Shown here: in pieces, positions 2,434 to 39,158 of the stretch
How the letters are laid out: the number at the start of each line of letters is the position of its first letter
How positions within the stretch are numbered: position 1 is the stretch's first letter
Assembly (NCBI GenBank): GCA_964427615.1
Contig: CAYRUR010000004.1
Span: 10,975 to 74,974 of the forward strand
Direction: 5' to 3'
DNA: 64,000 nt
Source: an uncultured Gammaproteobacteria bacterium
GTDB lineage: Bacteria; Patescibacteriota; Microgenomatia; Levybacterales; GWA1-39-11
The notes under the pieces: model-generated
The model's database searches: none
What the model saw: the letters and a program-made list of their open reading frames with translations, nothing else
What the model was told of the DNA's origin: nothing
Made by a program: the position numbers and the translations under genes

Positions 2434-5400
2434 AAATTATAAGGTGGATATCAGATAATATTTTATTTTTATATACGCTATTTTTATTAGTATTTATTCC
2501 TCTCTATCCAAAGATTCCCTTAATTGATGTAGAGCACACCTGGGTATATATTCGTCTTGAAGACTTTCTGGTAGCAGTTGCTCTTTTCTTATTTGGTATC
2601 CAATGGTTGAGAAAAAAAGCATACATAAAAACGCCACTTACTATGCCAATTGCTGTATTTTGGATAGTAGGAGCTATTTCTACTATTTTTGCGATTTTTG
2701 TTATTTTTCCGACTCTTTCAGGTGTTTTTCCTAACTTGGCAATTTTAAATTATCTACGTAGAATTGAATATCTTTCTCTATTTTTTGTCGCATTCTCTTC
2801 CATACGGGATAAAAAGCAAATCCATTACTATATTGCCATTATTACTGCTACGCTTCTGGCTGTTGTAGTATATGGTTTTGGGCAAAAGTTTTTAGGATGG
2901 CCTGCATTTTTGACCATGAATGAAGAATTTGCCAAAGGTATTCCTTTGCGCCTATCAGCACTGGCACGTATTCCTTCAACCTTTGCAGGGCATTATGATT
3001 TAGCAGGGTATTTGGTTATGATTATCCCTCTTTTGGGAAGCATGATCTTTGCGTATAAGCGTTGGTATATCAAGATAAGCTTGTTATTATCTGCAGTCTT
3101 AGGATTACTACTTCTAATGATGACTGCATCTCGTGTTTCTTTTGCTGTTTATTTATGTGCAATTGCTTTTATGTTGCTTTTGCAAAAAAAGAAATGGTTT
3201 ATTTTGCCGGTTGTTATTGCCAGTATTATTCTGCTGCAGTCATTTCAAGGGATATCAGATCGTTTTAATGCTACTGTTTCCCAGGTGGATGTAGTAGTAG
3301 ATGCCCGTACTGGACAAGCTATTGGAATTGCCAAAACAGTAGAAGAAAATGGCAAAAAGAAAGTGGTTATAGAAGAGTCTCAATCAACCGGTGAGGAATT
3401 ACCTCAAGGTACAGGTTACATTAATGTTCCTGCTGAGGGTAAGAAAGAAGTAACAGAAATTACATTCAAGCGTTCAACTGTAGGAGGGACGACATCCGGT
3501 GAGTTAAATATTGAAGGCAATTTTATTATTAAAAAAGCATTTGCATATGACCTGTCATTTACTACTCGTTTTCAGGGTACATGGCCAAGAGCATATGAGG
3601 CTTTTCAGAGAAATGTATTTTTAGGAAGCGGTTATTCCTCTATTAACTTAGCCTCTGATAATAATTATCTGCGCATATTAGGAGAGACGGGCATTCTGGG
3701 TCTTGCTTCATTTTTGTTTATTTTCCTTGTAGGAGGAATTTATTTATATAGAATGTTACCCCAAGTTGATTCGCCAGTTGTTAAAAGTTTTGCCATAGGT
3801 GCAGCAGCTGCTGTGTTTGGTCTTGCTCTCAATGCTGTACTAATTGATGTATTTGAGGCTTCAAAGGATGCTTTTTATCTTTGGATGTTGATAGGAGTTG
3901 CTGTGGGAGCATTACATTTGTATGAAAAGAAAAAGATAAATATGAAAAAAGAGTTGAAGCAAGTGCTTACGTCAATACCGGCAATTATTGTATATCTTCT
4001 CTTGTTATCACTAGCTATTTACACTCCTATGCTCACCAATTATTTTGTTGCAGATGATTTTGTATGGTTACGTTCTATCGCTGATTGTAGCAAAGGGCTG
4101 AATATGCCCGGAGGAGTTTGTGACTCTATGGGAACAAGAATTTTCCATTTCTTTACCCAGTCAGGTGACTTTTTCTATCGACCGGGGACAAAACTATACT
4201 TTTTGGGAATGTATGCTATCTTTGGGCTGAATAATGTCTTTTATCATCTTTCTTCTGTTTTTATGCTTTTTGTAACTGCAGCTGCTCTGTTTGTTATTAC
4301 CACTAAGTTACTAAAAAGTAGATTATTTGGATTTATTACTGCACTTCTCTTTTTGGGAGTCAGCAGTCATTATGAAGCAGTATTTTGGGTTTCAGCAGTG
4401 GGACATTTAGCGGCTTCTATGTTTGCTTTGGTAGGATTGCTATTTTTTGTCTTATGGAAAGAGTATAAAAAATGGTACTTGCTTCCTGTTTCACTTGTGA
4501 GTGCGTTTATTGCTCCTCTTTTTCATGAATTTGGTGTTATTGCACCTCTATTAGTGCTTTCCTATGCGATATTTGTATATTCTGATAAAAAGCATATTTT
4601 TACCACCTGGTCTAACTACCTTTATCTTTCTCTTATTCCCCTATATCTGGGTTTGAAGTATATATCGGGAAGCTGGTGGTCACAAGGAGATTATGCATAC
4701 AATCTTCTTAAGTTTCCTTTAAATGCACTAGGAAATAGTATTGGGTATCTCATGCTTATTTTATTTGGTACTCAATCACTTAGCTCTTATCAGGCAATCC
4801 GTTCTTTTGGGAGGGACAATATGCTCCTTGTAGCAGTTGTAGGATTGGTTATTTTGCTAGTAGGAGCATTTGTAGGATACAGGTTATTCACAAGACTTTC
4901 TAAGGAAGGTAAAAGAGTTGTAAAAGCTTCTCTATTGCTATTTGTAGTTCCTCTTCTTCCCTTTTTAGGGCTGGGAACTATTACTTCTCGCTACACATTG
5001 CTTGCTTCAGCAGGAGTTATTCTTTTTCTTGTTTTTCTTTTGCAATTAATCTATAAAAAGATTGCTCGGGTCAATTACTACGCAGCGCTTGCAATTATTC
5101 TTATTGTTGCGGCCCTTACCCTTGCTTTTCATCTTTCTGAATTAAGACGTATTAATCAGGATTGGGCAAAAGCTGGTACTATAACAAAAGAAATGCTAGC
5201 TCGTATTAGTAATAAATACGCAGGCTCTCAAGAATCAAAGGTACTTCCTCCAAATCCGGTATTTTATTTTGTTCATGTACCCGCAACTGTGGGAGAAGCC
5301 TGGGTATTTCCAGTAGGACTCAAAGATGCGTTGTGGTTTACCTTCCGCAATGAAAACTTAACTGTTAAAACAGTAGGAAGTCTTGATGAAGCTCTGAAAG

Positions 5401-6942: not shown

Positions 6943-8187
6943 ATGAAAGTATTATTTTTTACGTATGATTTTCCCTATCCTACTAATTCTGGTGGTAAAA
7001 ATAGAGCGTATCATTTACTCAAATATGCAAGAGAAAATGTTGAGGTAATTCTTTTCTCCTTTTACCGGCAGATACCAGAAAGAGAAAGTATTGAAGAAAT
7101 AGAAAAGTTAGGAATATCACATATACGTTTGTTTGCTCGCCCTTTTCCTGGTATTGGATCACTCATATCTTCTCCTGAGCGTATTGTGCAAAATGCTCCC
7201 TCTCTTTTAAAACTTTCAGATCCGAGAAAAGCAATAACAGAAAAATTGTACTTTAAACAAGACATTGCCCAAGAACTTCTCAAGACTGTGGAGGAAGAAA
7301 AAATTGATATGGTTCATTTTGAATCGTTTTATACGGCTTATTACATTTCTGATTTGTTAAAGAAAAAAAGAATTGTTCAATTATTTGGAACAGAGAACGT
7401 TGAGCATTTGTTATACCAAGATTATGCAGCCCGGAAGGCGAGTAAATTATTTTATCCATTTTATAGAATGGAGTCGATAAAAATAAAAAGAGATGAGCAA
7501 AAACTCTTGCAAAAAGCAGATATAACATTGGCAGTATCAGAGGAGGATGCATCAGTAATTAGTAAGATAACAGGCAAAGATACGTTTATCGTTGAGAATG
7601 GTGTAGATCTGGAATATTTTTCTTTTAAAAAGAAAAAGAAGAAAAAGGGAGAGAAAAAGAGACTATTGTTTATTGGTGATTTTTCTTACTTTCCTAATGT
7701 TGAGGCAATAACACACTTTTATAGGGATGTTTTTATCCAGATAGATGATGATACAGTTGAATTGAGAATAATAGGCAAGAAAGTATCAACTCTTCCATTT
7801 GAAAGTGATAAAAGAGTAATTGTTGATGAATATGTAGAAGATATCAGAGCAGAATATTACATGGCTGATCTCTTTGTATTCCCTATTACCATAGGAGGAG
7901 GTACAAATTTTAAATTGCTTGAGGCAATGGCGTGTGGTACTCCTGTCATTGCATATCCAGATCGGGTGCAAAGTGTTGGAATAGAGCCAGGAAAAGAAAT
8001 GATAGTAGTCCCTAATCCTGTTGAATTCAAAGAAAAGATAAAAGAAGTATTGAAAAATGAAACCATTGGCGGTACTATTGCTTTACAAGCAAGAGCATTT
8101 GTAGAAAAGCATTTTGATTGGAAAGTAATTGGAAAAAAATTACATGCCATATGGCAGGAAGCCTACACATATGAAAAACAATATTGA
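6943..8187 (+). CDS. Glycosyltransferase family 1 (GT4)
   Basis: C-terminal GT-B motif FVFPITIGGGTNFKLLEAMACGTPVIAYP; lysine-rich linker KKKKKKKGEKK. Confidence 0.65.
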   Translation: MKVLFFTYDFPYPTNSGGKNRAYHLLKYARENVEVILFSFYRQIPERESIEEIEKLGISHIRLFARPFPGIGSLISSPERIVQNAPSLLKLSDPRKAITEKLYFKQDIAQELLKTVEEEKIDMVHFESFYTAYYISDLLKKKRIVQLFGTENVEHLLYQDYAARKASKLFYPFYRMESIKIKRDEQKLLQKADITLAVSEEDASVISKITGKDTFIVENGVDLEYFSFKKKKKKKGEKKRLLFIGDFSYFPNVEAITHFYRDVFIQIDDDTVELRIIGKKVSTLPFESDKRVIVDEYVEDIRAEYYMADLFVFPITIGGGTNFKLLEAMACGTPVIAYPDRVQSVGIEPGKEMIVVPNPVEFKEKIKEVLKNETIGGTIALQARAFVEKHFDWKVIGKKLHAIWQEAYTYEKQY

Positions 8188-9079
8188 AGTTTCAATCGTT
8201 ATTGTCTCATATAATACCCGTCAGATTTTATCTGAATGTATTGAATCTATAGAGAAGAATATCGGAAATATATCCTATGAAGTTATCGTGGTAGATAATG
8301 CCTCAACAGATGATACAGTTGCTTATTTGAAAAAGAGTTCATTTAAAAATCTGAAAGTTATCGCCAATACTGAAAACGAAGGATTTTCAAAAGCGAATAA
8401 CAGAGGTGTAAGCCATGCAATAGGCAAATATATTCTTTTTCTTAACTCAGATACTGTGGTGTATGAAACAACGATTGAAGGGATGATTGCTTTTATGGAC
8501 GAGCATAAGAGTGTAGGTGCAGCAACGTGTTATCTGGTAATGCCAAATGGAAAATTAGATGATGCTTCTCACAGAGGATTTCCTACTCCTTGGAATTCAT
8601 TCGCTCATTTTTCAGGTATTGCTAAACTGTTTCCAAAGAGCCGATTATTTGGGGGATATAATTTAGGATATAAAAATCTCTCAAAACCACATGAGATAGA
8701 TGCTCTAGCTGGTGCTTTTATGTTGGTAAGAAGGGAAGCAGGAGAGGCTGTGGGATGGTGGGATGAGGATTATTTCTGGTATGGAGAGGATATTGATTTT
8801 TGTTATCGTTTGAAGCAGAAAAAATGGAAGATCTACTTTGTGCCTCAATACAAAATCCTGCATTATAAAGGAGTATCAGGAGGAATCAAAAAAGGATCAC
8901 AAAAGATAACAAAGGCAAGTAAAGAGACAAAGCGAAAAGCAACTCATGCACGCTTTGATGCTATGCGCATTTTTTACCAAAAGCACTATACCCACAAATA
9001 TCCGAAAGTGGTAACCTCACTTGTCCTATCAGGAATAGGACTAAAAGAATATGCTACTAAAAAAATGCAACGAATATGA
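8171..9079 (+). CDS. Glycosyltransferase family 2
   Basis: VSIVIVSYNTRQIL, VIVVDNASTDDT and FLNSDT motifs. An ATG at 8171 is the likely start; the tool ORF opens earlier, at 8129. Confidence 0.65.
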   Translation: MKNNIEVSIVIVSYNTRQILSECIESIEKNIGNISYEVIVVDNASTDDTVAYLKKSSFKNLKVIANTENEGFSKANNRGVSHAIGKYILFLNSDTVVYETTIEGMIAFMDEHKSVGAATCYLVMPNGKLDDASHRGFPTPWNSFAHFSGIAKLFPKSRLFGGYNLGYKNLSKPHEIDALAGAFMLVRREAGEAVGWWDEDYFWYGEDIDFCYRLKQKKWKIYFVPQYKILHYKGVSGGIKKGSQKITKASKETKRKATHARFDAMRIFYQKHYTHKYPKVVTSLVLSGIGLKEYATKKMQRI

Positions 9080-10212
9080 GAATAGGCATTGATGCACGGC
9101 TATGGAATGAAACAGGAGTGGGTAGGTATATCAGGAATTTAGTTACTGGACTTCAAAAACTGGATAAAAAGAACGAGTATGTATTGTTTGTGAAAGGTAA
9201 AGAATACGACAGAATTAAGAATCAAGAATTAAAAATTGAGCATAAGAAGTGGAAGGTGGTTAAGGCAGATGTACAATGGCATTCACTCAAAGAACAGTTG
9301 CTTTTTTCCCGTATTTTAAATAAAGAAAATTTGGATCTGGTGCATTTTCCTTATTTTTCAACTCCTATTTCGTATAAGAAACCATTTGTCGTAACCATTC
9401 ATGACCTTATTATTAGTAAATTCCCCACAGGAAAAGCATCAACACTTCCCACTCCTTTGTATTACCTAAAACATGCAGCATATGAGAAAGTGTTATCCCA
9501 TACTGTCTCTCATGCCAAACATATTATTACTCCATCTAATCATGTAAAAAACGACGTGATGAAAGCATTTACAATTCCTGAAGAAAATATTACCGTAACC
9601 TATGAAGGGGTAGATGACGCGTTATCTACTGTACCAAAAGAGTCTACCTTTTCTTATCTACAGGATATCCCTTATTTTATCTATATTGGCAATGCATACC
9701 CTCATAAAAATGTGGAGTTGTTGATAGATGCTTTTTCCGATTTCCTGCATTCTTTCCCAGAATTTGCGAATACACATCTTTTGTTAGTAGGAAAAGAGGA
9801 CTATTTTTATAAACGTCTGAAAAAGAATAAAAAAAATACAGAAGGAAATGTACTCTTTTTACATGATGTTTCTGATAAGGACCTTTCATATCTACTACAT
9901 CATGCACAAGCACTAGTGGCTCCATCTAAAGATGAGGGGTTTGGGTTAACTACAGTTGAGGCGATGTCTGCTTCATGTTTGGTGCTTGCTTCCAATATTG
10001 CAGTGTTTAAAGAAGTGTGTGGAAAGTGGGCTCTTTATTTTGATGTGCGTGAGAAAAATGACTTGGTCGATAAAATGAAGCTTGTACTGAAAATGGATGA
10101 GAAAGAGAAAAACGTATATAAAAGGGAAGCCAAAAAGTATATTAAAAAATATTCATGGGAAAGGATGGTAAAGCAAACGCTTGACGTGTATGAAAGTAGC
10201 AATAGTCTATGA
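9076..10212 (+). CDS. Glycosyltransferase family 1 (GT4)
   Basis: C-terminal PSKDEGFGLTTVEAMSASCLVLASN motif; ATGA overlap with the upstream gene. Confidence 0.65.
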   Translation: MRIGIDARLWNETGVGRYIRNLVTGLQKLDKKNEYVLFVKGKEYDRIKNQELKIEHKKWKVVKADVQWHSLKEQLLFSRILNKENLDLVHFPYFSTPISYKKPFVVTIHDLIISKFPTGKASTLPTPLYYLKHAAYEKVLSHTVSHAKHIITPSNHVKNDVMKAFTIPEENITVTYEGVDDALSTVPKESTFSYLQDIPYFIYIGNAYPHKNVELLIDAFSDFLHSFPEFANTHLLLVGKEDYFYKRLKKNKKNTEGNVLFLHDVSDKDLSYLLHHAQALVAPSKDEGFGLTTVEAMSASCLVLASNIAVFKEVCGKWALYFDVREKNDLVDKMKLVLKMDEKEKNVYKREAKKYIKKYSWERMVKQTLDVYESSNSL

Positions 10213-11272
10213 TAGAGTCAATAAATGGGGAGGGGCAGAACGTGTACTGCTGGCGTTACACGAATTATTTCCAGATGCGCCTCTCTATACCTCTGTGTAT
10301 GATGAAGAAGGTGCTTTTTGGGCTAAATCATTTAATGTAAAGACTTCTTTTCTACAAAAAATAACTGTTGCCAGAAAATCACATGAATTTTTTGCGGCTC
10401 TTATGCCCATTGCTTTTGAGTCTTTTTCTTTTGATGAGTATGACTTGGTAATCTCAGTTACGAGTGAATTTGCCAAAAGTATTATTACCAAACCTGGCAC
10501 AGCACATATCTGCATTTGTCTGACTCCTACTCGCTATTTGTGGAGTGGGTATGATGAGTACTTTGCTAATCCTTTACTGAGGGTAGCAGCATTTCCTGTG
10601 GTGCGTTTTTTGAGAAAGGTAGATAGAATAACAGCATATAGACCAGACGCCTATATTGCTATTTCCGAGGAAGTAAAAAGGCGTATCAAGACATATTACG
10701 GACAAGACGCAGAGGTTATATATCCTCCAGTTGATATTCCCAAAGGTTCGTTATCTACTAAAGAAGGAGCGTATTTTCTAGTTGTCTCACGCTTGGTCAA
10801 ATATAAGCGCGTGGATTTGGCTATTCAGGCTGCAAATAAGCTCGGAGTTTCATTAAAAATTGTAGGAGTTGGAAGGGAAAGGAAAAGATTGGAGCAAATG
10901 GCTGGCAAAACAGTAACGTTTTTAGGACAGGTATCAGAAGAGGAATTGGCAGATTTGTATAGAAATGCAAAAGCGCTTATTTTTCCGGGGAAAGAGGATT
11001 TTGGTATTGTGATGGTAGAGGCACAAAGTTATGGAAAACCCGTAGCTGCTTTTGGACAAGGTGCTTCGACTGAAATAATTATTCCAGGAAAGACAGGAGA
11101 GCTTTTTTCTGAGCAATCAGTAGATTCTCTTATTAGGGTATTGGAAAAAATAAGTAAAAGTAAGTATAATAGGGAAAGTTGTATAGAAAATGCTAAAAGA
11201 TTTTCAAAAGAGCACTTCAAAAAAGAAATACAACTATTCATTGATAAAAGGGTAAGAGCATCAAAAGTATGA
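10190..11272 (+). CDS. Glycosyltransferase family 1 (GT4)
   Basis: N-terminal MKVAIVYDRVNKWGGAERVLLAL and C-terminal FPGKEDFGIVMVEAQSYGKPVAAF. The tool ORF starts at a TTG at 10181; the first ATG is at 10190. Confidence 0.6.
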   Translation: MKVAIVYDRVNKWGGAERVLLALHELFPDAPLYTSVYDEEGAFWAKSFNVKTSFLQKITVARKSHEFFAALMPIAFESFSFDEYDLVISVTSEFAKSIITKPGTAHICICLTPTRYLWSGYDEYFANPLLRVAAFPVVRFLRKVDRITAYRPDAYIAISEEVKRRIKTYYGQDAEVIYPPVDIPKGSLSTKEGAYFLVVSRLVKYKRVDLAIQAANKLGVSLKIVGVGRERKRLEQMAGKTVTFLGQVSEEELADLYRNAKALIFPGKEDFGIVMVEAQSYGKPVAAFGQGASTEIIIPGKTGELFSEQSVDSLIRVLEKISKSKYNRESCIENAKRFSKEHFKKEIQLFIDKRVRASKV

Positions 11273-12351
11273 AAGTTATTATTTTTGCAGGCGGTGTAGG
11301 AACAAGGCTTTGGCCAGTTTCTCGCAAGAATACACCAAAACAATTTGAGAAAATATTTGGAGAAAATTCCACTTTGCAATTGGTAGCAAATCGCTTGCAG
11401 CCTGACTTCTCCTGGTCTGATTTATATATTTCCACAGGCAAAAAATATACAGAAATTATAAAAGAACAGCTTCCTCATGTAGCAGCAGACCATATCATTG
11501 GTGAGCCAAAGATGCGAGATGTAGGTCCAGCAGTAGGCTTAATAACCGGAATCCTTGCTAAAGAAGCACCGAATGAGCCTATGGCTATTTTGTGGAGTGA
11601 TCATTTGGTGAAAAAAGAAGAGCATTTCAGAAAAATTTTATTGACTGCTGGAGATATTGTAAAAGAGAGTCCTGATACTATTGTGTTTGTATCACAAAAA
11701 CCACGGTTTGCCAGTGAAAATTTGGGCTGGATTCATTATGGCAGTAAGGCATTTGAAAAAAATGGACTGCAATTTCACTCTTTTCTTGGTTTTAAATATC
11801 GCCCTGATAGAGAGACTGCACACGAATACATGACTAACGGAGATCATGCTTGGAATCTAGGATACTTTGTAACGACACCTCAATTTTTGTGGGAGCAATA
11901 TAAAAAGCATGTTCCTGAAATGTATGAAGGTTTGACTAAAATTGTGAATGCATGGAAAACAGATGCTTTTGATACCGTACTTGAAGAAGTATATCCTGAG
12001 CTTGAAAAAATCTCTTTTGATAATGCTATCCTTGAAAAACTTGATCCATCTTCTGCACTCGTTATCTCAGATGATATTGGATGGAGTGACATTGGAGCAT
12101 GGGAAGCACTAAAAGAAGCATTGGCTGATAATGAAGATGAAAATGTGACAAAGGGGAAAGTATTACTCAATGATTCACGGGATAGTTTAGCATTTAATTA
12201 TTCTGAGCAGATGGTGGTTGGTATAGATTTGGATCAAATGTTGGTTATTAATACACCAGATGTAGTTTTGGTCTGTCCTAAGACATCAGTACCAAAAATC
12301 AAAAAATTAGTACAAAGTCTTGAAGGTACAGAATACGAGTCCCTTACGTAA
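11269..12351 (+). CDS. Mannose-1-phosphate guanylyltransferase-like sugar nucleotidyltransferase (nucleotidyltransferase domain only, no cupin/PMI domain)
   Basis: N-terminal MKVIIFAGGVGTRLWPVSRKNTPKQF, the classic ManC/GMP signature. Confidence 0.65.
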   Translation: MKVIIFAGGVGTRLWPVSRKNTPKQFEKIFGENSTLQLVANRLQPDFSWSDLYISTGKKYTEIIKEQLPHVAADHIIGEPKMRDVGPAVGLITGILAKEAPNEPMAILWSDHLVKKEEHFRKILLTAGDIVKESPDTIVFVSQKPRFASENLGWIHYGSKAFEKNGLQFHSFLGFKYRPDRETAHEYMTNGDHAWNLGYFVTTPQFLWEQYKKHVPEMYEGLTKIVNAWKTDAFDTVLEEVYPELEKISFDNAILEKLDPSSALVISDDIGWSDIGAWEALKEALADNEDENVTKGKVLLNDSRDSLAFNYSEQMVVGIDLDQMLVINTPDVVLVCPKTSVPKIKKLVQSLEGTEYESLT

Positions 12352-12363
12352 TTGCTCTTCCTT

Positions 12364-13002
12364 ATGATATATGATGCTATAAAAAGATTGTTAGATATTG
12401 CGTTATCAATCTTTTTGATTATCCTTTTTTCTCCTGTTTTTTTTCTTACTGCTTTAGCTATAAAAATGGATTCTAAAGGTCCTATTCTTGCTGATACTCC
12501 TTCTCGAGTGGGTAAAGACGGGAAGTTGTTTCGAATGTATAAATTCCGTTCTATGATACAAAATGCACATACAATGCTCTTAGAGGACGAAAAATTCAAG
12601 CAATATTATGAGGAGTATAAAAAAAGTGGTTATAAACTAAAAAATGATCCTAGAATTACCCGTATTGGCAGATTTATTCGCAAGTATTCACTTGATGAAT
12701 TACCTCAGTTTTTTAATGTCTTAAAAGGTGAAATGAGTATTGTGGGTCCTCGTGCTTATTATCCTGACGAATTACGAGATCAGCAAAAACAATATCCAGG
12801 TACTAGTAAGGCGGTAAAAATTGTGATGTCAGCAAAGCCGGGAATTACGGGTGTGTGGCAAGTCTCTGGAAGAAGCGATATCAATTTCGATAAACGAATT
12901 TTGCTGGATGCAGAGTATGCAAAGAGAAGATCTATTGTGTATGATCTGTATATTATTGCCAAAACGCCCTTTGCTATGCTTTCCGGAAAAGGAGCTATGT
13001 AA
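12364..13002 (+). CDS. Bacterial sugar transferase (monotopic phosphoglycosyl transferase, WbaP C-terminal/PglC-type), the initiating enzyme of glycan assembly
   Basis: Signature LDELPQFFNVLKGEMSIVGPRA, PGITGVWQVSGRS and an N-terminal reentrant hydrophobic helix. The ATG is at 12364; the tool ORF begins at a TTG at 12352. Confidence 0.75.
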   Translation: MIYDAIKRLLDIALSIFLIILFSPVFFLTALAIKMDSKGPILADTPSRVGKDGKLFRMYKFRSMIQNAHTMLLEDEKFKQYYEEYKKSGYKLKNDPRITRIGRFIRKYSLDELPQFFNVLKGEMSIVGPRAYYPDELRDQQKQYPGTSKAVKIVMSAKPGITGVWQVSGRSDINFDKRILLDAEYAKRRSIVYDLYIIAKTPFAMLSGKGAM

Positions 13003-13088: not shown

Positions 13089-15068
13089 ATGGAAGAACAA
13101 GGATTTGGAAAACTAAACTTTTCATCACCGAAACCTAGCGTTAACGCTCAGACTATTAAGCCATTTGCAAGTATGAGAAAAAGAAGATTATTAGCAGGAA
13201 ATAATAAAAGACTAAAAAAACTGTTGAGATCAAGGAAATTTCTTGTTGTAGCAGGAATTGTATTACTATTGGGGGTAGTGTCACTCATAAAAGCATTTTC
13301 TGTATATAACGATGCCATGCAGCTGAGGACTCAGGCAAAAGCAGCATATGCAGCTATCAAAGTACAAGATGTTGAGCTTGCTAAGAAAGAATTGGTAAAA
13401 ACCCAAGAGAATGTAGAGCAATTACAGAAAGACTTAGGTTTTTTCATGTTAGTAGGATATATTCCTTTTGTAGGAGGGTATTACAATGACGTAGTACATA
13501 TGGTAAATGCCTCCTCTTATGGTATCTCAGCAGCCACAATTGCTACTGACTCACTTATTCCTTACGCTGATGTGCTTGGTCTTAAGGGGAGCGGTACTTT
13601 TACAACAGGATCAGCACAGGACAGGATTCGATTAGCAGTCAAGACATTGGGTAAAGTTGTTCCAAGAATTGATGAGATAGAAGTACAGGTATCAAAAGCA
13701 AAAGAAGAAATTGATCAAGTAGATGTGAATCATTATCCAAATTTTTGGGTATTTAAAGATTTAAGAACCCAAATTGAAACAGTAAAAACGCTTACAGATG
13801 AGGGAGCGTTAGCGGTAAAAGAAGGAAAACCACTTATTAAAATGTTGCCGGAACTTCTAGGTGAGTCAGAAGACAAAAAGTATTTGATATTGTTCCAGAA
13901 TGATAAGGAGTTGCGTCCTACCGGAGGATTTTGGACTTATTATGCTATTTTCAGGGTAGAACAAGGGGTGATTACAGTTGACAAATCAACCAATATTTAT
14001 GATCTTGATGATAGTATTCCTTCTCACCCTGCTGCGCCAAGAATTATTGCTAATTACCTTCCAAAAGTAAATGAATGGTATATTAGGGACGCTAATATTT
14101 CACCTGACTTTGCAGAGTCAGTAAAGAACTTTAATGAGTTGTATGAGGATTCTGCTGAATATACAGAGGTAGATGGCGTTATCGCGCTTGATACTCATTT
14201 TCTGGTACATATTTTAGAAATCTTAGGAGAAGTACAGGCAGGTGGCCAGGCTTTTAATGCAGAAATAGACCCTCACTGTGATTGTCCTCAAGCAGTCTAT
14301 TTGCTAGAACTAAATACCACAAAACCAGTAGGATACGTAAGAGAGAATAGAAAGTCTATTTTAGGAGATCTTTTATTTGCCATTATGGAAAAAGCACTTT
14401 CCAGTTCTCCAGGAGATTATTGGGGAAGACTGGTACAGACTGCTATGGCTGATGCACAGCAAAAGCATATTATGTTCCATTTATATAACAAAGATGCACA
14501 GCGTGGAGTAGAAGCACTAGGGTGGGGCGGAAGAATTGATAATACTTTTGAAGGAGACTATCTGCATATAAATGATGCTAATTTTGGAGGAGCAAAATCA
14601 AATATGTTTGTAAGAGATGCAGTAAAGATGGAGTATGAGGTGGATAAAGAAGGAAAGATTACCAAAACAGTAACTATTGATTATAAAAACCCTCAACCAT
14701 ACTCCGATTGTAACCTTGAAAGTGGTGGTTTATGTTTGAATGCAACTTTGAGGAACTTCCAACGGGTTTATGTACCCAAAGGTAGTGATTTGGTAAAAGT
14801 AAAAGGATCTGAAGTGAAAGTAAAAACGAATGAGGATCTTGGCAGAACTTATTTTGAGTCATTCTTTAGGGTAAATCCTCTGGGTAAAGCACAAATTTCA
14901 TATACCTACACACTGCCATTTAAAGTTGAAAAAGGACAAGAACTGCCAGTACTGATTCAAAAACAGGGAGGAAAGGACATAATTCCGTACGAGATCTATG
15001 TAAATGACAAAAAAGTAGAAACATTTGATCTCACTACTGATAAGGAACTTCTTCTTGAGGTGCGATAA
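13089..15068 (+). CDS. DUF4012 domain protein with an N-terminal TM anchor
   Basis: Motif LRPTGGFWTYYAIFRVEQGVITVDKSTNIYDLDD, typical of the DUF4012 family that accompanies glycan loci in Patescibacteria and Actinobacteria. A good RBS, AGGAGGAAGAAATC, precedes the ATG. Confidence 0.6.
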   Translation: MEEQGFGKLNFSSPKPSVNAQTIKPFASMRKRRLLAGNNKRLKKLLRSRKFLVVAGIVLLLGVVSLIKAFSVYNDAMQLRTQAKAAYAAIKVQDVELAKKELVKTQENVEQLQKDLGFFMLVGYIPFVGGYYNDVVHMVNASSYGISAATIATDSLIPYADVLGLKGSGTFTTGSAQDRIRLAVKTLGKVVPRIDEIEVQVSKAKEEIDQVDVNHYPNFWVFKDLRTQIETVKTLTDEGALAVKEGKPLIKMLPELLGESEDKKYLILFQNDKELRPTGGFWTYYAIFRVEQGVITVDKSTNIYDLDDSIPSHPAAPRIIANYLPKVNEWYIRDANISPDFAESVKNFNELYEDSAEYTEVDGVIALDTHFLVHILEILGEVQAGGQAFNAEIDPHCDCPQAVYLLELNTTKPVGYVRENRKSILGDLLFAIMEKALSSSPGDYWGRLVQTAMADAQQKHIMFHLYNKDAQRGVEALGWGGRIDNTFEGDYLHINDANFGGAKSNMFVRDAVKMEYEVDKEGKITKTVTIDYKNPQPYSDCNLESGGLCLNATLRNFQRVYVPKGSDLVKVKGSEVKVKTNEDLGRTYFESFFRVNPLGKAQISYTYTLPFKVEKGQELPVLIQKQGGKDIIPYEIYVNDKKVETFDLTTDKELLLEVR

Positions 15069-15598
15069 TGAAATATCTCAAAGACATTGGATTTGTAATT
15101 AAGCGAGTTAATTTTGGAGAGAGTGATAGATATATTACCCTTTATACGAAAGAACATGGCAAGATGGAGGTTGTGGCAAAGGGAGTACGCAAAATTACAA
15201 GTCGTAGATCTTCTCACATAGAGCCTTTAAATATTATTACGTTTCAAGCAATTAAAGGGTATAAAAATTATATCCTGACAGAAGTAGAACTGGTAAAAGC
15301 AACTGACGCACTCAAAACAGACTTAAAAAGCTGTGCTGCTCTTTTTATGATGTGTGAGCTGATTGATACTCTGTGCCCTTATGATGAGAAAAATACTGCT
15401 TTGTTCCATGCTGTACTGCAAAAACTACAGGAAAAGAGTATAGATGAGGCTGCTATCCATGCTTTTCAAATTGATATCCTGACTCATTTAGGATACTGGG
15501 ATGCTAAAAAAGCATTTCGTGATGGGCAAGACATCCAACAATTCATTGAAAACATCACCGAAAGAAAAATGAAAACCCCTCAGATTTTTAATTTGTAA
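15068..15598 (+). CDS. recO: DNA repair protein RecO (short form)
   Basis: N-terminal OB-fold signature GFVIKRVNFGESDRYITLYTKEHGKMEVVAKGVRK...EPLNIITFQ; TAATG overlap with the upstream gene. Confidence 0.55.
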   Translation: MKYLKDIGFVIKRVNFGESDRYITLYTKEHGKMEVVAKGVRKITSRRSSHIEPLNIITFQAIKGYKNYILTEVELVKATDALKTDLKSCAALFMMCELIDTLCPYDEKNTALFHAVLQKLQEKSIDEAAIHAFQIDILTHLGYWDAKKAFRDGQDIQQFIENITERKMKTPQIFNL

Positions 15599-15917
15599 GC
15601 TCACTGTTATTTGTCTCTTAAAATAACCTCTTATACATCCCGTAGTAATTGATATTTGTATCTGTTTTTGTTAAAATTTTCCCACTTGAAGTGGTACGTA
15701 CAGACCGTATGAGGTCTCTTATGCGCTCTTCAATTAAAATCGTCCTACTTCGCATAAAGCTTTGTAGGATTAGCACGTTCACAAGTTAATTCCGATTAAA
15801 TCGGAATTAGGGAAAGTTACATTTTTTTAGTTGGTGGCGCTTTGTGTACTATACAGTTAGTATGCAGTGCGCCATCAACTGGATGGTAAGAAATGTTAGA
15901 TTGGAAAGAGAAAGAAG

Positions 15918-16778
15918 ATGGATCGCGAGGCGTATCTGGTGGCTTTAAATCGCCTGAGTCACGGTGGAATAAAGAGTCCAACTCTTGCTGATTTAGAGGC
16001 AATTACACCACATCTTACCGACGAGCAACGCCGTAGTATACTGCATGACGATAGAGGTGTACACTTTGCTATTCCTCCAGTTAGGATAATAGGCGGCTTT
16101 TGGGTCGCTTCGTACACCAAGTCCAAGTACAGCGGCATCAATTGGCTGAATCTGGAGGTAGTATGGTACACTCCTAAATCCTGCATGGATGTAAGGTCAC
16201 GACTCAAAGAGCCCGTTGACGTTGCATTTCGGGACAGATCCATGACTTACGCTGAGGAGTACTGGGGTGATCAGCTTATTCCTATTGCTGGGAAAGACGC
16301 CGGAATAGTGTTCATTCAAGATCCCACCAACCTCTACACGAGCGGCAATAAGGCAAGGCGGGGCAGTCCGAAGACCATGAGCGTTATCTATTACACACTA
16401 AGTCGTCGAATGGAGGATATCCTGATTGACTATTCTGCTCCTCTTAGCGAGGTATGGAACAACGGATTGGTGGAGGTTACATGCGACTACATTGTAGGCA
16501 CAGAACTTGCAGGTCACAGAGGCGGCTACAGGGACTATAACTGCGCCTTTTGTAGTTATGGACTTGGTAGAACTAGCTGTAAGAACTGCGGAAATAAGTT
16601 CTATGATGACTACGGTGTTCGGTCATCATGTAGTACTCCACTGCCAGAAAGGATGGTTGCACTTCTTCAAGAGAATGGCCATCGGTTCGGGCTGGATCCA
16701 GCGATTGCACGACAACGGGAGTGGCAAGAGTGGGAGGAAAAATTAAGAGAGCGTGAGTTACTAAAGCAACTTTCCTAA
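15918..16778 (+). CDS. Hypothetical protein, 286 aa, in a GC-elevated island; Cys-rich C-terminus (CAFCSYGLGRTSCKNCGNKFYDDYGVRSSC), no family recognised
   Basis: A long ORF whose codon usage is visibly richer in G/C third positions than its neighbours. I recognise no motif of a known enzyme family. Confidence 0.5.
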   Translation: MDREAYLVALNRLSHGGIKSPTLADLEAITPHLTDEQRRSILHDDRGVHFAIPPVRIIGGFWVASYTKSKYSGINWLNLEVVWYTPKSCMDVRSRLKEPVDVAFRDRSMTYAEEYWGDQLIPIAGKDAGIVFIQDPTNLYTSGNKARRGSPKTMSVIYYTLSRRMEDILIDYSAPLSEVWNNGLVEVTCDYIVGTELAGHRGGYRDYNCAFCSYGLGRTSCKNCGNKFYDDYGVRSSCSTPLPERMVALLQENGHRFGLDPAIARQREWQEWEEKLRERELLKQLS

Positions 16779-16796
16779 CAACTTGTGAGTGTATAG

Positions 16797-16838
16797 CAGG
16801 GGTGAGTGAATTTTGACTTATATCAAGACTTACCCCTG
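16797..16838 (+). terminator. Hairpin following the GC-rich ORF (CAGGGGTGAGT ... ACTTACCCCTG)
   Basis: An 11-bp stem with one G-U position, followed by CATCACTCTTTTC. Confidence 0.35.
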
Positions 16839-16927
16839 CATCACTCTTTTCTAAATTCTTATTCTTAACCCGTTAACTTGTTAATAGTGAGTAAATAATA
16901 GTCTCTCATCCTTATCTTAAAAGATAT

Positions 16928-16956
16928 TTGCTAGTGATTCTTCAGTCTGATATACT
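16928..16956 (+). promoter_or_regulatory. Sigma70-like promoter for glyQS (TTGCTA, 17 nt, TATACT); very short leader
   Basis: -35 at 16928-16933, 17-nt spacer, -10 at 16951-16956; ATG at 16969. Confidence 0.35.
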
Positions 16957-16968
16957 TTCCTCATTGCA

Positions 16969-18402
16969 ATGAAAGATGACTTGTTAGCAAAAGTAGTGGC
17001 TTTAGCAAAAAGAAGAGGATTTGCATATCCTGGTTCTGACATATATGGAGGGCTCAATGGTACCTGGGATTTGGGACCTGTAGGAGTTGAATTAGCACGC
17101 AATATAAAACAAGAGTGGTTGAAAGCAATTGTAAGAGGAAGAGATGATGTGGTAGAGATTGATTCCTCTGTAATTCTGAACCCAAAAGTGTGGGAAGCTT
17201 CAGGACATATTAAATCATTTACTGATCCTTTGATTGAGTGCAAAAACTGCCATGCAAGATTTCGAGAAGACAATTTTCCAACATTTAATATGCAAGAGGA
17301 TGTATTTGCTGAGAAGTGGACAGACATGTACAGCAACTATCATAAGGCAGAAAATCAAGAAGATCTTGGCAAAGGAAGAAAAGCATATACAGAGTCAAAA
17401 GAAAAAGAGATAATAAAATGTCCTAATTGTTTTGAATTTAAAGGATATACTCCAGCACGGCAGTTTAACTTAATGTTTAAGACATTTGTAGGTCCAGTAG
17501 ACGATGAGAAAGATCAAACCTATTTGCGTCCTGAGACTGCACAAGGTATTTTTATTAACTTCAAGAATGTGTTAGATAGCAGTAGAGTAAAAATTCCTTT
17601 TGGTATTGCACAAATTGGAAAAGGATTTCGCAATGAAATTACCACAGGCAACTTCTTGTTCAGAGTAAGAGAGTTTGAGATGATGGAGCTTGAGTTCTTT
17701 ACTGCACCAGAAGAGGCTTCAAAATGGCATGAGTACTGGAAGGAAGAACGCCTGCGCTGGTACTTGGATCTAGGCATAAAGAAAGAAAACATAAAGTTGA
17801 TTGATTTGCCCAAAGAAGATCTGGCACATTATTCCAAAGGAACTGCAGAGGTACACTATAACTGGCCGTTTATGGAAGGATTTGGTGAATTAGAAGGTAT
17901 AGCAAATAGAGGTGATTATGATCTCAAGCAGCATCAGGAAGTATCAGGAAAAGATATGACATATTTTGAGCAAGCAACAGGGAAAAAGTATCTCCCCTAT
18001 GTAATAGAACCATCAGTAGGTGTTGGTAGAGCTATGCTTGCCTTTTTATTGGATGCCTATGTTGAGGAAGAAAAACGGGTGGTGTTAAAATTGCACCCTC
18101 GAATTGCACCAGTGAAGGTAGCTGTTTTTCCGCTCCTTTCTAACAAACCAGAATTGGTAGAAAAAGCACATGCAATTTACAAAGAACTACAAGCACATAT
18201 TGATGGTAAAGTTATGTTTGATGATAGAGGAAATATTGGAAAACGTTACTTTTATCAGGATGAAATAGGTACGCCATTTTGTGTGACAGTAGATTTTGAA
18301 ACACTAGAAGATGGACAAGTTACGGTAAGAGACAGAGATACTGCAACTCAGGAAAGAGTGAGTATTGAAAAACTTACTTCTTATCTGCAGGAAAAGATAT
18401 AG
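16969..18402 (+). CDS. glyQS: Glycine--tRNA ligase, dimeric eukaryote/archaeal type
   Basis: RRGFAYPGSDIYGGLNGTWDLGPVGVELARNIKQEW plus class-II motifs; 477 aa. Confidence 0.88.
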   Translation: MKDDLLAKVVALAKRRGFAYPGSDIYGGLNGTWDLGPVGVELARNIKQEWLKAIVRGRDDVVEIDSSVILNPKVWEASGHIKSFTDPLIECKNCHARFREDNFPTFNMQEDVFAEKWTDMYSNYHKAENQEDLGKGRKAYTESKEKEIIKCPNCFEFKGYTPARQFNLMFKTFVGPVDDEKDQTYLRPETAQGIFINFKNVLDSSRVKIPFGIAQIGKGFRNEITTGNFLFRVREFEMMELEFFTAPEEASKWHEYWKEERLRWYLDLGIKKENIKLIDLPKEDLAHYSKGTAEVHYNWPFMEGFGELEGIANRGDYDLKQHQEVSGKDMTYFEQATGKKYLPYVIEPSVGVGRAMLAFLLDAYVEEEKRVVLKLHPRIAPVKVAVFPLLSNKPELVEKAHAIYKELQAHIDGKVMFDDRGNIGKRYFYQDEIGTPFCVTVDFETLEDGQVTVRDRDTATQERVSIEKLTSYLQEKI

Positions 18403-38531: not shown

Positions 38532-39158
38532 TTAGTGACTTTGGTGAGCAAAGTGACTGACGCATTGACCTTGGTTTTTAAATGATGGAGAAGTGAAATT
38601 CTTCCATCCACCATTTTTACACTGATCTTTCAGTGTTTGGCCGCTTACTGTAACCGGTGAGCCATTGACCATGATGTTGGAAAGGGTTGTTTGTCCTTCC
38701 TCGTCCTGGACAATATCTATTCCAGTAACTGTTTCGCCAGTTGGGAATAGGACACCACCGTAAGTATTGCCTGCGGTAAAGGTTACTTGTCCACTCCCAT
38801 CATTTCCATGGGTACATCCTAAGAAAATAGTCTGGCCATTGGATAAATAGACGTTAAATCGGGGAGCACCTGCACCGCAATAGTCATCCACTTGAAAGCT
38901 CAATGTCATATCAGAGGTAGAAAGGCCCTCAACTCCCTCTATGGCTGCACCTGCTGCTGCATTGGTACTAGTAGGTACATTTTTTTCTAAATGCAGACTT
39001 CCATCACTGGTAACTTGAGATACAACACCTCCAGTATTGGTCGGGTCATATGTCCATGGATTTAGGGAAAATGTTGCAGCAAAGGAAGATACTGCAGCAA
39101 CTGCAAAGAGAGAAAGAGCAGCTACTCCTACTGACATTCTCAGAGCAAAATTTCTCAT
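38532..39158 (-). CDS. Secreted hypothetical protein with signal peptide; Gly/Thr-rich, predicted beta-rich
   Basis: N-terminal MRNFALRMSVGVAALSLFAVAAVSSFAATFS (signal peptide with an AXA site) and conserved Cys pairs. Its G+C is visibly higher than that of its neighbours. Confidence 0.45.
   Translation of the reverse strand: MRNFALRMSVGVAALSLFAVAAVSSFAATFSLNPWTYDPTNTGGVVSQVTSDGSLHLEKNVPTSTNAAAGAAIEGVEGLSTSDMTLSFQVDDYCGAGAPRFNVYLSNGQTIFLGCTHGNDGSGQVTFTAGNTYGGVLFPTGETVTGIDIVQDEEGQTTLSNIMVNGSPVTVSGQTLKDQCKNGGWKNFTSPSFKNQGQCVSHFAHQSH

Follow-up and report, generated by a model that had tools for sequence, protein, structure and literature searches.

What is a gene of foreign base composition doing between two housekeeping genes of a bacterium of the candidate phyla radiation (CPR), and is the hairpin-rich DNA in front of it a partner or merely its leader? 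The question is raised by a 64,000-nt stretch of contig CAYRUR010000004.1 (assembly GCA_964427615.1, positions 10,975 to 74,974 of the forward strand), hereafter the window, in which an open reading frame (ORF) of 286 amino acids (15918-16778, + strand) sits between the gene for RecO and that for a glycine-tRNA ligase (glyS) and is the sole long ORF of the region. An initial annotation, made from the letters of the sequence, likened the structured DNA and the protein together to a retron-like, toxin-antitoxin or selfish mobile module, and saw in them the best candidate in the window for an undescribed system. The explanation we lean towards is different, i.e., a recently acquired single-gene islet whose stand-alone cargo gene belongs to an undescribed zinc-ribbon family and carries its own expression signals; that the gene is stand-alone island cargo is, taken separately, probable.

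A foreign segment at the recO-glyS junction

Nothing in the window deviates more strongly in base composition than the ORF. Its guanine-plus-cytosine (GC) content is 48.2%, against 35.7% for the window, and it is the top 861-bp stretch of the 64 kb (z = 4.3); at third codon positions (GC3) the value is 47.6%, compared with 26.3 ± 2.5%, and a maximum of 31.2%, in the 49 other window ORFs of at least 150 amino acids (z = 8.4). The impressions first gained by eye, of a GC content in the high 40s over a background in the mid 30s and of GC-ending codons throughout, are borne out by these figures. The elevation had been extended to the whole 1.3-kb insertion, which is correct from about 15828 on, where the GC-rich segment begins, and incorrect for the 229 nt of leader before it (15599-15827), which at 34.5% GC are host-like. 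The coding part of the insert retains a donor-like composition.

The neighbouring genes permit a comparison with other genomes. Upstream lies the RecO gene (15068-15598, 176 amino acids, TIGR00613) and downstream the glycine-tRNA ligase gene (16969-18402, 477 amino acids, dimeric type, NF003211, 627 bits), and the spacer between them measures 1,370 bp. The gene order around them, i.e., nucleoside triphosphate (NTP) transferase (ManC), sugar transferase, DUF4012, RecO, glycine-tRNA ligase (GlyRS), small protein, MraZ, RsmH and penicillin-binding protein, is the same in four syntenic relatives, L002 and L003 (Amesbacteria) and L057 and L058/L059 (Levybacteria), whose recO-glyS spacers are of 46, 116, 132 and 99 bp, respectively. 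Since these spacers are so short, about 1.3 kb must have been inserted at the junction in the window lineage, even if the relatives are distant (GlyRS at most 62% and RecO at most 59% identical to the window proteins). The junction comparison proposed at the outset has therefore found four genomes without the insert and, together with the GC3 deviation, it upholds the suggestion of a recent horizontal acquisition.

The foreign segment can be bracketed at about 15624-16927, because the bases that follow recO and the promoter-like site of glyS resemble those of the relatives. On the left, the recO-proximal bases GCTCACTGTTATTTGTCT (15599-15623, + strand) resemble those past the recO stop in L002 (AGCTCTGTTTATTTCT) and are probably native, with the left limit of the insert at or just past them; this likeness was judged by eye and is weak, the relatives being only about 60% identical. 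On the right, the limit is marked by the putative native promoter of glyS, TTGCTA-17-TATACT with a TG extension (16928-16956, + strand), and in L057 and L058, too, TTGC(A/T)A ... TATACT motifs stand just before this gene. An independent assembly from Logan contains 10,032 bp identical to the window, including both insert junctions, which shows that the locus is no binning chimera. Altogether, a segment of about 1.3 kb (roughly 15624-16927) has very probably been inserted laterally into a short recO/glyS spacer of a Microgenomates-type CPR bacterium.

The insert bears no mark of how it arrived. Curated family searches gave no transposase or integrase domain, no terminal inverted repeats were found, and the sole flanking direct repeat is the 8-nt TCTTAAAA at 15616 and 16915, which was rejected as a target-site duplication because 355 of 2000 shuffles (18%) match or beat it. 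No tRNA lies within 30 kb of the insert, no part of it has a second copy in the 64-kb window, and tblastn and blastn searches against phage and plasmid collections and viral contigs were without matches.

A protein family outside the curated libraries

The window protein is soluble, with an isoelectric point (pI) of 6.6 and without signal peptide or transmembrane segment. It has no match in the curated libraries Pfam, NCBIfam, PADLOC, PHROGs and PDB sequences, and a word-indexed homology search returned only the protein itself, or five proteins when run with a profile. Only an exhaustive HMMER scan, run over 1.84 billion cluster representatives, brought its relatives to light: 234 homologous clusters (clustered at 50% identity) have E ≤ 1e-3, and 140 of them reach E ≤ 1e-10. 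The best match other than the protein itself is 45% identical. The earlier remark that the protein fits no recognisable family is thus valid for the curated libraries, and gives way to a populous family outside them. When 157 family members were scanned against the same libraries, no recognised domain emerged except for one U-box fusion.

An alignment of 42 members is collinear end to end. Its invariant residues are P31, P53, W116, E196, C209, C221, C224 and F257, and Y6, P21, H32, L33, A108, A112, L120, P136, C212, L242, G254 and P261 are near-invariant, with C212 at least 90% conserved. The consensus motifs read NPT..D....CPHLT, A..YA...WG..LI.D.W, ELKGGR...NCA.CG.GL.L..C..CG..F.DD and TPLP.K.V..L...GH.F..DP. 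In 105 further members, the four ribbon cysteines are the sole columns conserved at 90% or more. The window protein retains all the invariant residues, and for this reason it looks functional. That it belongs to this undescribed family, defined by the P-H-L motif, the GGRGG loop and the zinc ribbon, is virtually certain.

The ribbon itself, C209-x2-C212-x8-C221-x2-C224 (codons at 16542-16589, + strand), has the two CxxC knuckles with conserved spacing that mark the zinc-ribbon class, and its conservation across the family substantiates the four-Cys Zn-ribbon-like element seen in the initial annotation; we regard the ribbon as real and as a putative metal site. The label of a Cys-rich ORF does not survive, given 7 Cys in 286 residues (2.4%), of which C238 is not conserved. 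Known zinc-ribbon domains, such as Pfam DZR (PF12773) and the ribbons of RPB12, eL37 and eL40, share with the family its most conserved feature, the CxxC-x8-CxxC knuckle pair; however, the matches (DZR in 7 of the 42 members, best E 0.01; RPB12 and eL37 ribbons, E 0.09-0.2) are all below threshold and span about 30 residues, and the other 250 residues match nothing.

With the family alignment, AlphaFold2 returned a confident model (predicted local distance difference test, pLDDT, 93.5; predicted template modelling score, pTM, 0.89), in comparison to a pLDDT of 39 from the single sequence. A Foldseek search of this model found nothing at E ≤ 1e-3 in PDB and BFVD. The architecture common to the family, of about 260-290 amino acids and soluble, starts with a small N-terminal helical module bearing the near-invariant P-H-L motif, continues with a central alpha/beta domain and an E-x-K-G-G-R-G-G loop that leads into the four-Cys zinc ribbon, and ends with the conserved TPLP...GH.F..DP segment and a long C-terminal helix. 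PAS-like alpha/beta sensor domains also count among the nearest known parallels. An ADP-ribosyltransferase, considered on account of conserved H, Y and E residues, was discarded because their order is wrong and no match to the fold of these enzymes was obtained. Unrelated N-terminal extensions of 130-150 amino acids, without Pfam or PDB match, are present in some members (L045, 5611-6000; L046, 4598-4987; P0027, residues 1-150).

The leader and the expression signals

The 319 nt before the ORF are strongly structured, as the initial annotation had indicated. Positions 15599-15930 fold with -103.8 kcal/mol, against -74.2 ± 5.1 kcal/mol for dinucleotide shuffles (z = -5.8; z = -6.1 with a second shuffle set), and on the - strand the z is comparable, with a fold weaker by 20 kcal/mol. 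Every hairpin listed at that time is present, with coordinates off by about 1 nt. The Rfam search of the leader proposed along with them gave no match at E ≤ 10, and no similar sequence was found elsewhere in the window, in the fetched family loci or in phages; no homologous leader was located among the reachable data.

Going from recO towards the start codon, the best sigma-70-like promoter candidate of the region is TTGATA-17-TAAAAT with a TG extension (15649-15677, + strand, 10 of 12 matches), which predicts a start near 15684 and a 5' untranslated region (UTR) of about 230 nt. Then comes a cluster of short hairpins (CCAC/GTGG, AGACC/GGTCT and TTATGCG/CGCATAA; 15682-15757, + strand), at -20.3 kcal/mol (z = -2.7) modest on its own, as 5 of 200 shuffles fold equally well. 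The stem described earlier as 9 bp at 15787-15807 does exist, and is in fact part of a perfect 23-nt palindrome, TAATTCCGATT-A-AATCGGAATTA, with 11-nt arms (15787-15809, no strand assigned, z = -4.8) and no other copy in the window, which may be an RNA hairpin or, as a candidate, the operator of a dimeric protein. The unrelated viral contig IMGVR_UViG_3300028327_000017 (L061) carries the palindrome TAATTCCGATTTAATCGGAATTA at 5058-5080, identical to the window copy as read on the - strand and located about 20 nt 5' of a gene for a 106-amino acid protein with a signal-peptide-like N-terminus; by an estimate made without calculation, an exact match of such length seems improbable by chance.

The most stable element is a long hairpin of 23 pairs (15828-15881, + strand), of which the TGGCGC...GCGCCA noted earlier is the core; it ends 37 nt 5' of the start codon, and the GC-rich segment starts with it. 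On the + strand it folds at -34.2 kcal/mol (z = -7.7); on the - strand, where four G·U pairs turn into C·A mismatches, the value is only -21.5 kcal/mol. As these pairs work on the + strand only, the hairpin would be an RNA-level structure on the strand of the ORF, most consistent with an RNA read from that strand. Two other roles for this hairpin were dismissed, namely an intrinsic terminator, since no U-tract follows, and, by inspection, an attC-like recombination site: attC sites have the order RYYYAAC...GTTRRRY, and the hairpin begins with GTTGG and ends with CAAC, the reverse of it.

The start codon is preceded by a purine-rich ribosome-binding region predicted from the sequence, GGAAAGAGAAAGAAG (15903-15917, + strand). 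The mean pairing probability computed for 15900-15920 is 0.61-0.63 when the transcript begins within recO or at its end, as against 0.41-0.45 when it begins at 15684, a weak hint that the leader may insulate the gene from recO read-through. The leader also holds unconserved ORFs of 46 (+ strand) and 54 (- strand) amino acids, in neither of which a hydrophobic stretch of transmembrane length, as would mark the small toxin of a type I toxin-antitoxin module, is visible by eye. Past the ORF, a GC-rich hairpin is followed by 5 nt and a T-rich tract (16796-16868, + strand, -23.9 kcal/mol, z = -5.0); it had been reported as 11 bp at 16797-16838, and its presence is confirmed with 12 bp at 16796-16839. 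This is likely the terminator of the inserted gene, and it fails a strict terminator scan owing to its interrupted U-tract.

Upstream regions of other family genes are unstructured in L045, L049 and L042 and structured in L047, L054, L051 and L055, with z-scores from +0.7 to -6, and some homologues have a spacer of at most 80 nt or overlap the preceding gene. An upstream RNA common to the family was rejected, as most structures elsewhere are terminators that belong to the gene before, and the window leader resembles none of them. Two more candidates were set aside: a repeat or miniature inverted-repeat transposable element (MITE), since neither the window nor any fetched locus contains a second copy, and the decayed remnant of an N-terminal extension of the L045 or P0027 type, for which tblastn was negative and which is at odds with the mutual unrelatedness of those extensions. 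An Rfam search of 15000-17500 gave no T-box match at E ≤ 10 that could belong to glyS, and the structured region stands before the foreign ORF, not before glyS. The leader is by all appearances specific to the window locus; that it acts in cis, as a 5' UTR element, is possible and falls somewhat short of an even chance.

The family in other genomes

The DNA around family genes was analysed at ten loci besides the window, whose hosts include Daviesbacteria (L045), Peribacteria (L049) and Woesearchaeota (L043). The homologous clusters occur in CPR bacteria and DPANN archaea as well as in other bacteria. L042 and L043 are syntenic, with family copies 69% identical and neighbouring genes in common, and at least three hosts (L053, L055 and L060), which lie outside the CPR, carry more signalling genes. 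In an all-against-all BLASTP of the neighbours at the ten loci, the family gene was the sole gene in common, and because no neighbour is conserved the family protein would work alone or with host factors.

Genomic islets and islands can integrate next to tRNA or transfer-messenger RNA (tmRNA) genes, and several loci recall this habit. A tRNA-Pro gene lies 155 nt 5' of the family gene in L049; in L054, a tRNA gene lies 1.7 kb 5' and a type I restriction-modification (R-M) operon directly 3'. The tmRNA gene of L051 (3430-3809) is 3.2 kb 5' of the family gene, and about 1 kb 3' of this tmRNA gene begins a 3.4-kb block of four unknown genes, the family member being the last, flanked by 64-nt direct repeats (4817-4880 and 8282-8345, 95% identical), each with a terminator hairpin; the block looks like an integrated cassette. 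L060 has a block of unknown genes, without PHROGs matches, bounded by a phage-type integrase, and L053 contains an element of the insertion sequence (IS) family IS21. In L047, a tRNA-Val gene lies 350 nt 5' of the family gene and is followed by a partial duplicate of its ends. The 5' and 3' ends of this tRNA (139-222) are repeated 106 and 176 nt downstream (245-398). Within these repeats, and still before the family gene, about 150 nt form a strongly structured element that looks like a tRNA; an att-type duplication may explain it, or a second tRNA that was disrupted.

The family also includes tandem copies and a fusion. L055 encodes two tandem paralogues (1247-2380 and 2547-3575), 38% identical, whose C-termini are drawn out into long basic tails with coiled coils; the next gene encodes a DUF3228 protein (3772-4809), and the genome is GGDEF-rich, with about 56% GC. 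The U-box mentioned above (PF04564, E = 4.9e-12) is fused to the C-terminus of P0097, a protein of 357 amino acids with a degenerate zinc ribbon, encoded on a 1.4-kb JGI contig.

Pattern scans of contig collections relied on a 6-sequence alignment, as that of 42 sequences was too diverse, and gave four metagenome loci and no viral locus; the family was not found in phage, plasmid and viral-contig collections. In most hosts the GC3 of the family gene is within the range of its neighbours, and it is a clear outlier only in the window and in L049. The idea of perpetual mobility, which a consistent GC excess would have revealed, was rejected on this ground, and for the same reason the family appears to be resident in many lineages and newly arrived in that of the window.

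Alternative explanations

Could the gene be ancestral and lost in the relatives, or the locus an artefact of assembly or binning? The distance of the relatives, with about 59-62% identity in RecO and GlyRS, gives some room for this idea, but the GC3 of the gene is 8 standard deviations off all other window genes, four independent relatives lack it, and a separate Logan assembly has the identical sequence, so that the chance left to it is next to negligible. The two-part system of the initial annotation would make the leader a functional non-coding RNA (of a retron msr/msd, guide, bridge-RNA or antitoxin type) that partners the encoded protein; in its favour are the pronounced structure of the leader (z = -5.8), the strand specificity of the main hairpin at the RNA level and the position immediately 5' of a foreign zinc-ribbon protein. 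The likeness to retrons, IS110-type bridge-RNA elements and TnpB omega-RNA is one of layout only, namely about 300 nt of hairpin-rich non-coding DNA beside a zinc-ribbon protein gene. None of the 157 members has a reverse transcriptase (RT), RuvC, DEDD, HNH or toxin domain, nor is Transposase_20 found in the family; the leader lacks an Rfam match at E ≤ 10, is not co-conserved, in sequence or structure, at the other family genes examined (some with 80-nt spacers or an overlapping upstream gene), and has host-like GC up to 15827. As for retrons in particular, neither the ORF nor the 157 homologues match RVT_1 in Pfam, NCBIfam or PADLOC, the sequence contains no YxDD, and Rfam gives no msr/msd match for a leader that is not conserved at the other loci examined; as for type II toxin-antitoxin pairs, the insert has a single gene, without conserved partner at the ten loci and without match to a toxin-antitoxin family. 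A joint RNA-protein system is accordingly highly improbable, and the module imagined in the initial annotation, for which no RT, nuclease, toxin, transposase or integrase domain came to light, finds no support; what is undescribed here is the protein family itself. An autoregulated DNA-binding transcription factor, with the perfect 23-bp palindrome (15787-15809) as operator, would suit the predicted model, which has a small N-terminal helical module, the zinc ribbon and a C-terminal helix fit for dimerisation. No such palindrome precedes the other family genes, though, the pI is 6.6, no helix-turn-helix or other DNA-binding family is matched, and the candidate promoter is found about 100 nt upstream of the palindrome; we consider this quite improbable.

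The two remaining alternatives concern mobility and conflict. An autonomous or recently decayed mobile element (IS, MITE-like or mini integrative element), with the ORF as cargo, would account for a clean insertion at a conserved junction and for the tRNA and tmRNA genes, integrase, IS21 and 64-nt direct repeats that adjoin family genes elsewhere. The insert, however, has neither transposase nor integrase nor terminal inverted repeats, its 8-nt repeat is no better than that of many shuffles, and it has no second copy in the window and none in the phage and plasmid collections or viral contigs, which makes such an element improbable; the lack of transposase, terminal inverted repeats and significant target-site duplication speaks equally against a plain insertion sequence. 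Compared with islands linked to tRNA or tmRNA genes, the window islet has the foreign composition, the absence from syntenic relatives and the homologues in such contexts, and it differs in being one gene in a housekeeping spacer, with no tRNA within 30 kb, no integrase and no att-like repeat; features of tRNA-targeting islands are partly present at L047, L049, L051, L054 and L060. The same anatomy would also result if the cargo were a single-gene anti-phage defence or anti-defence factor. The sporadic, laterally transferred distribution, the homologue directly 5' of a type I R-M operon and those in integrase or IS contexts agree with this. The ORF, however, has no match in PADLOC 2.0, where two of the 42 members match candidate models weakly (E 0.0085 and 0.046) and none at a meaningful E-value; no nuclease, NADase, pore or protease domain is recognisable, a known defence system adjoins just one of the ten loci, and the absence of the family from phage genomes disfavours a phage anti-defence gene. 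We rate a defence or anti-defence role as unlikely, if less so than the mobile element.

A proposed mechanism and its weak points

In the single-gene islet that we favour, illegitimate recombination would have brought in the insert, or the insert would be what remains of a larger island. Transcription would start at the gene's own promoter (near 15649-15677) and stop at its own terminator (16796-16868), to give an mRNA whose structured 5' UTR measures about 230 nt, and the leader would be a locus-specific cis element acting on mRNA stability or translation rather than a separate RNA partner. The protein would act alone, as a zinc-stabilised binding or adaptor module with an accessory role and not as a housekeeping enzyme, this role being either interaction with a host or partner or conflict with mobile elements. 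What suggests a binding or adaptor role is that family genes sit in island contexts, occur sporadically with symbiotic lineages at the centre of their distribution, have expanded in tandem and in one case are fused to a U-box, and that no catalytic signature is seen. LubX of Legionella is a bacterial U-box effector of intracellular bacteria, and the C-terminal U-box of P0097, along with the coiled-coil basic tails and tandem paralogues of other members, brings effectors of this type to mind; the window protein has no U-box, and no secretion signal or system is linked to these members. An effector- or adaptor-like binding role is thus a tentative proposal, and we hold it more doubtful than true.

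Several considerations weigh against the islet and its mechanism. No relative exceeds about 59-62% protein identity and the insertion is dated by composition alone; the donor is not traceable beyond the nearest homologue, 45% identical; and with integrase, repeat and att site all absent from the insert, the insertion mechanism is a guess. The promoter candidate is a consensus match only, the number of such sites not being above shuffle expectation, and ordinary 5' UTRs have far less structure than the leader. The lack of a fold neighbour holds for PDB and BFVD alone, and the taxonomy on which the hosts are assigned covers just a few of the 234 clusters. Finally, the proposed function depends on context, on one U-box fusion from a 1.4-kb contig and on lineage distribution rather than on a biochemical signature.

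Further observations

Some features outside the insert deserve mention. At 477 amino acids, the window glycine-tRNA ligase is longer than those of the three closest relatives (429-438 amino acids), and it has an additional segment at about residues 95-160 that contains a CPNC motif; weak zinc-ribbon matches (E 0.2-0.55) fall on the flanking CKNC and CPNC motifs. Between 36419 and 39158, 3' of an FtsZ-like gene, small unassigned ORFs on both strands form a patch, one of which (38532-39158, - strand) encodes a protein of 208 amino acids with a signal-peptide-like N-terminus and, at 44%, has the second-highest GC content in the window. In the Daviesbacteria locus L045, more than 5 kb (7500-12816) are nearly without ORFs of at least 100 amino acids and have no Rfam match, and the near-identical L046 has a gene for a 278-amino acid DUF5667 protein at the matching place; frameshifts, sequencing errors or a degraded region may be the cause.

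Significance

The genomic event is an ordinary one, the lateral acquisition of a small islet, and should the function of the protein prove mundane, the finding would amount to just another conserved hypothetical protein. What it points to is broader, namely a family of at least 234 sequence clusters that is absent from the curated libraries and has a confident predicted structure without significant neighbour in PDB or BFVD. At its boldest, the reading would be that of a hitherto unknown class of single-protein factors that move laterally and have a fold not seen before. Ultra-small episymbionts of both domains, i.e., CPR bacteria and DPANN archaea, would share it with other bacteria, and it would act on a partner or host cell, or against invading elements, via a binding domain anchored by the zinc ribbon, while in the window an unusual and strongly structured 5' RNA element would gate its expression after transfer; taken as a whole, this picture is rather unlikely.

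The family passes from group to group among CPR bacteria, DPANN archaea and other bacteria. Only few hypothetical families of DPANN are reported to occur in bacteria at all (Castelle et al. 2021, PMC8204110), which makes a family that is both shared and mobile a sensible one to consider for a function tied to the symbiotic way of life. The window copy may serve as a natural experiment in this respect, being a fresh and intact transfer that would bring its own expression signals into conserved housekeeping surroundings.

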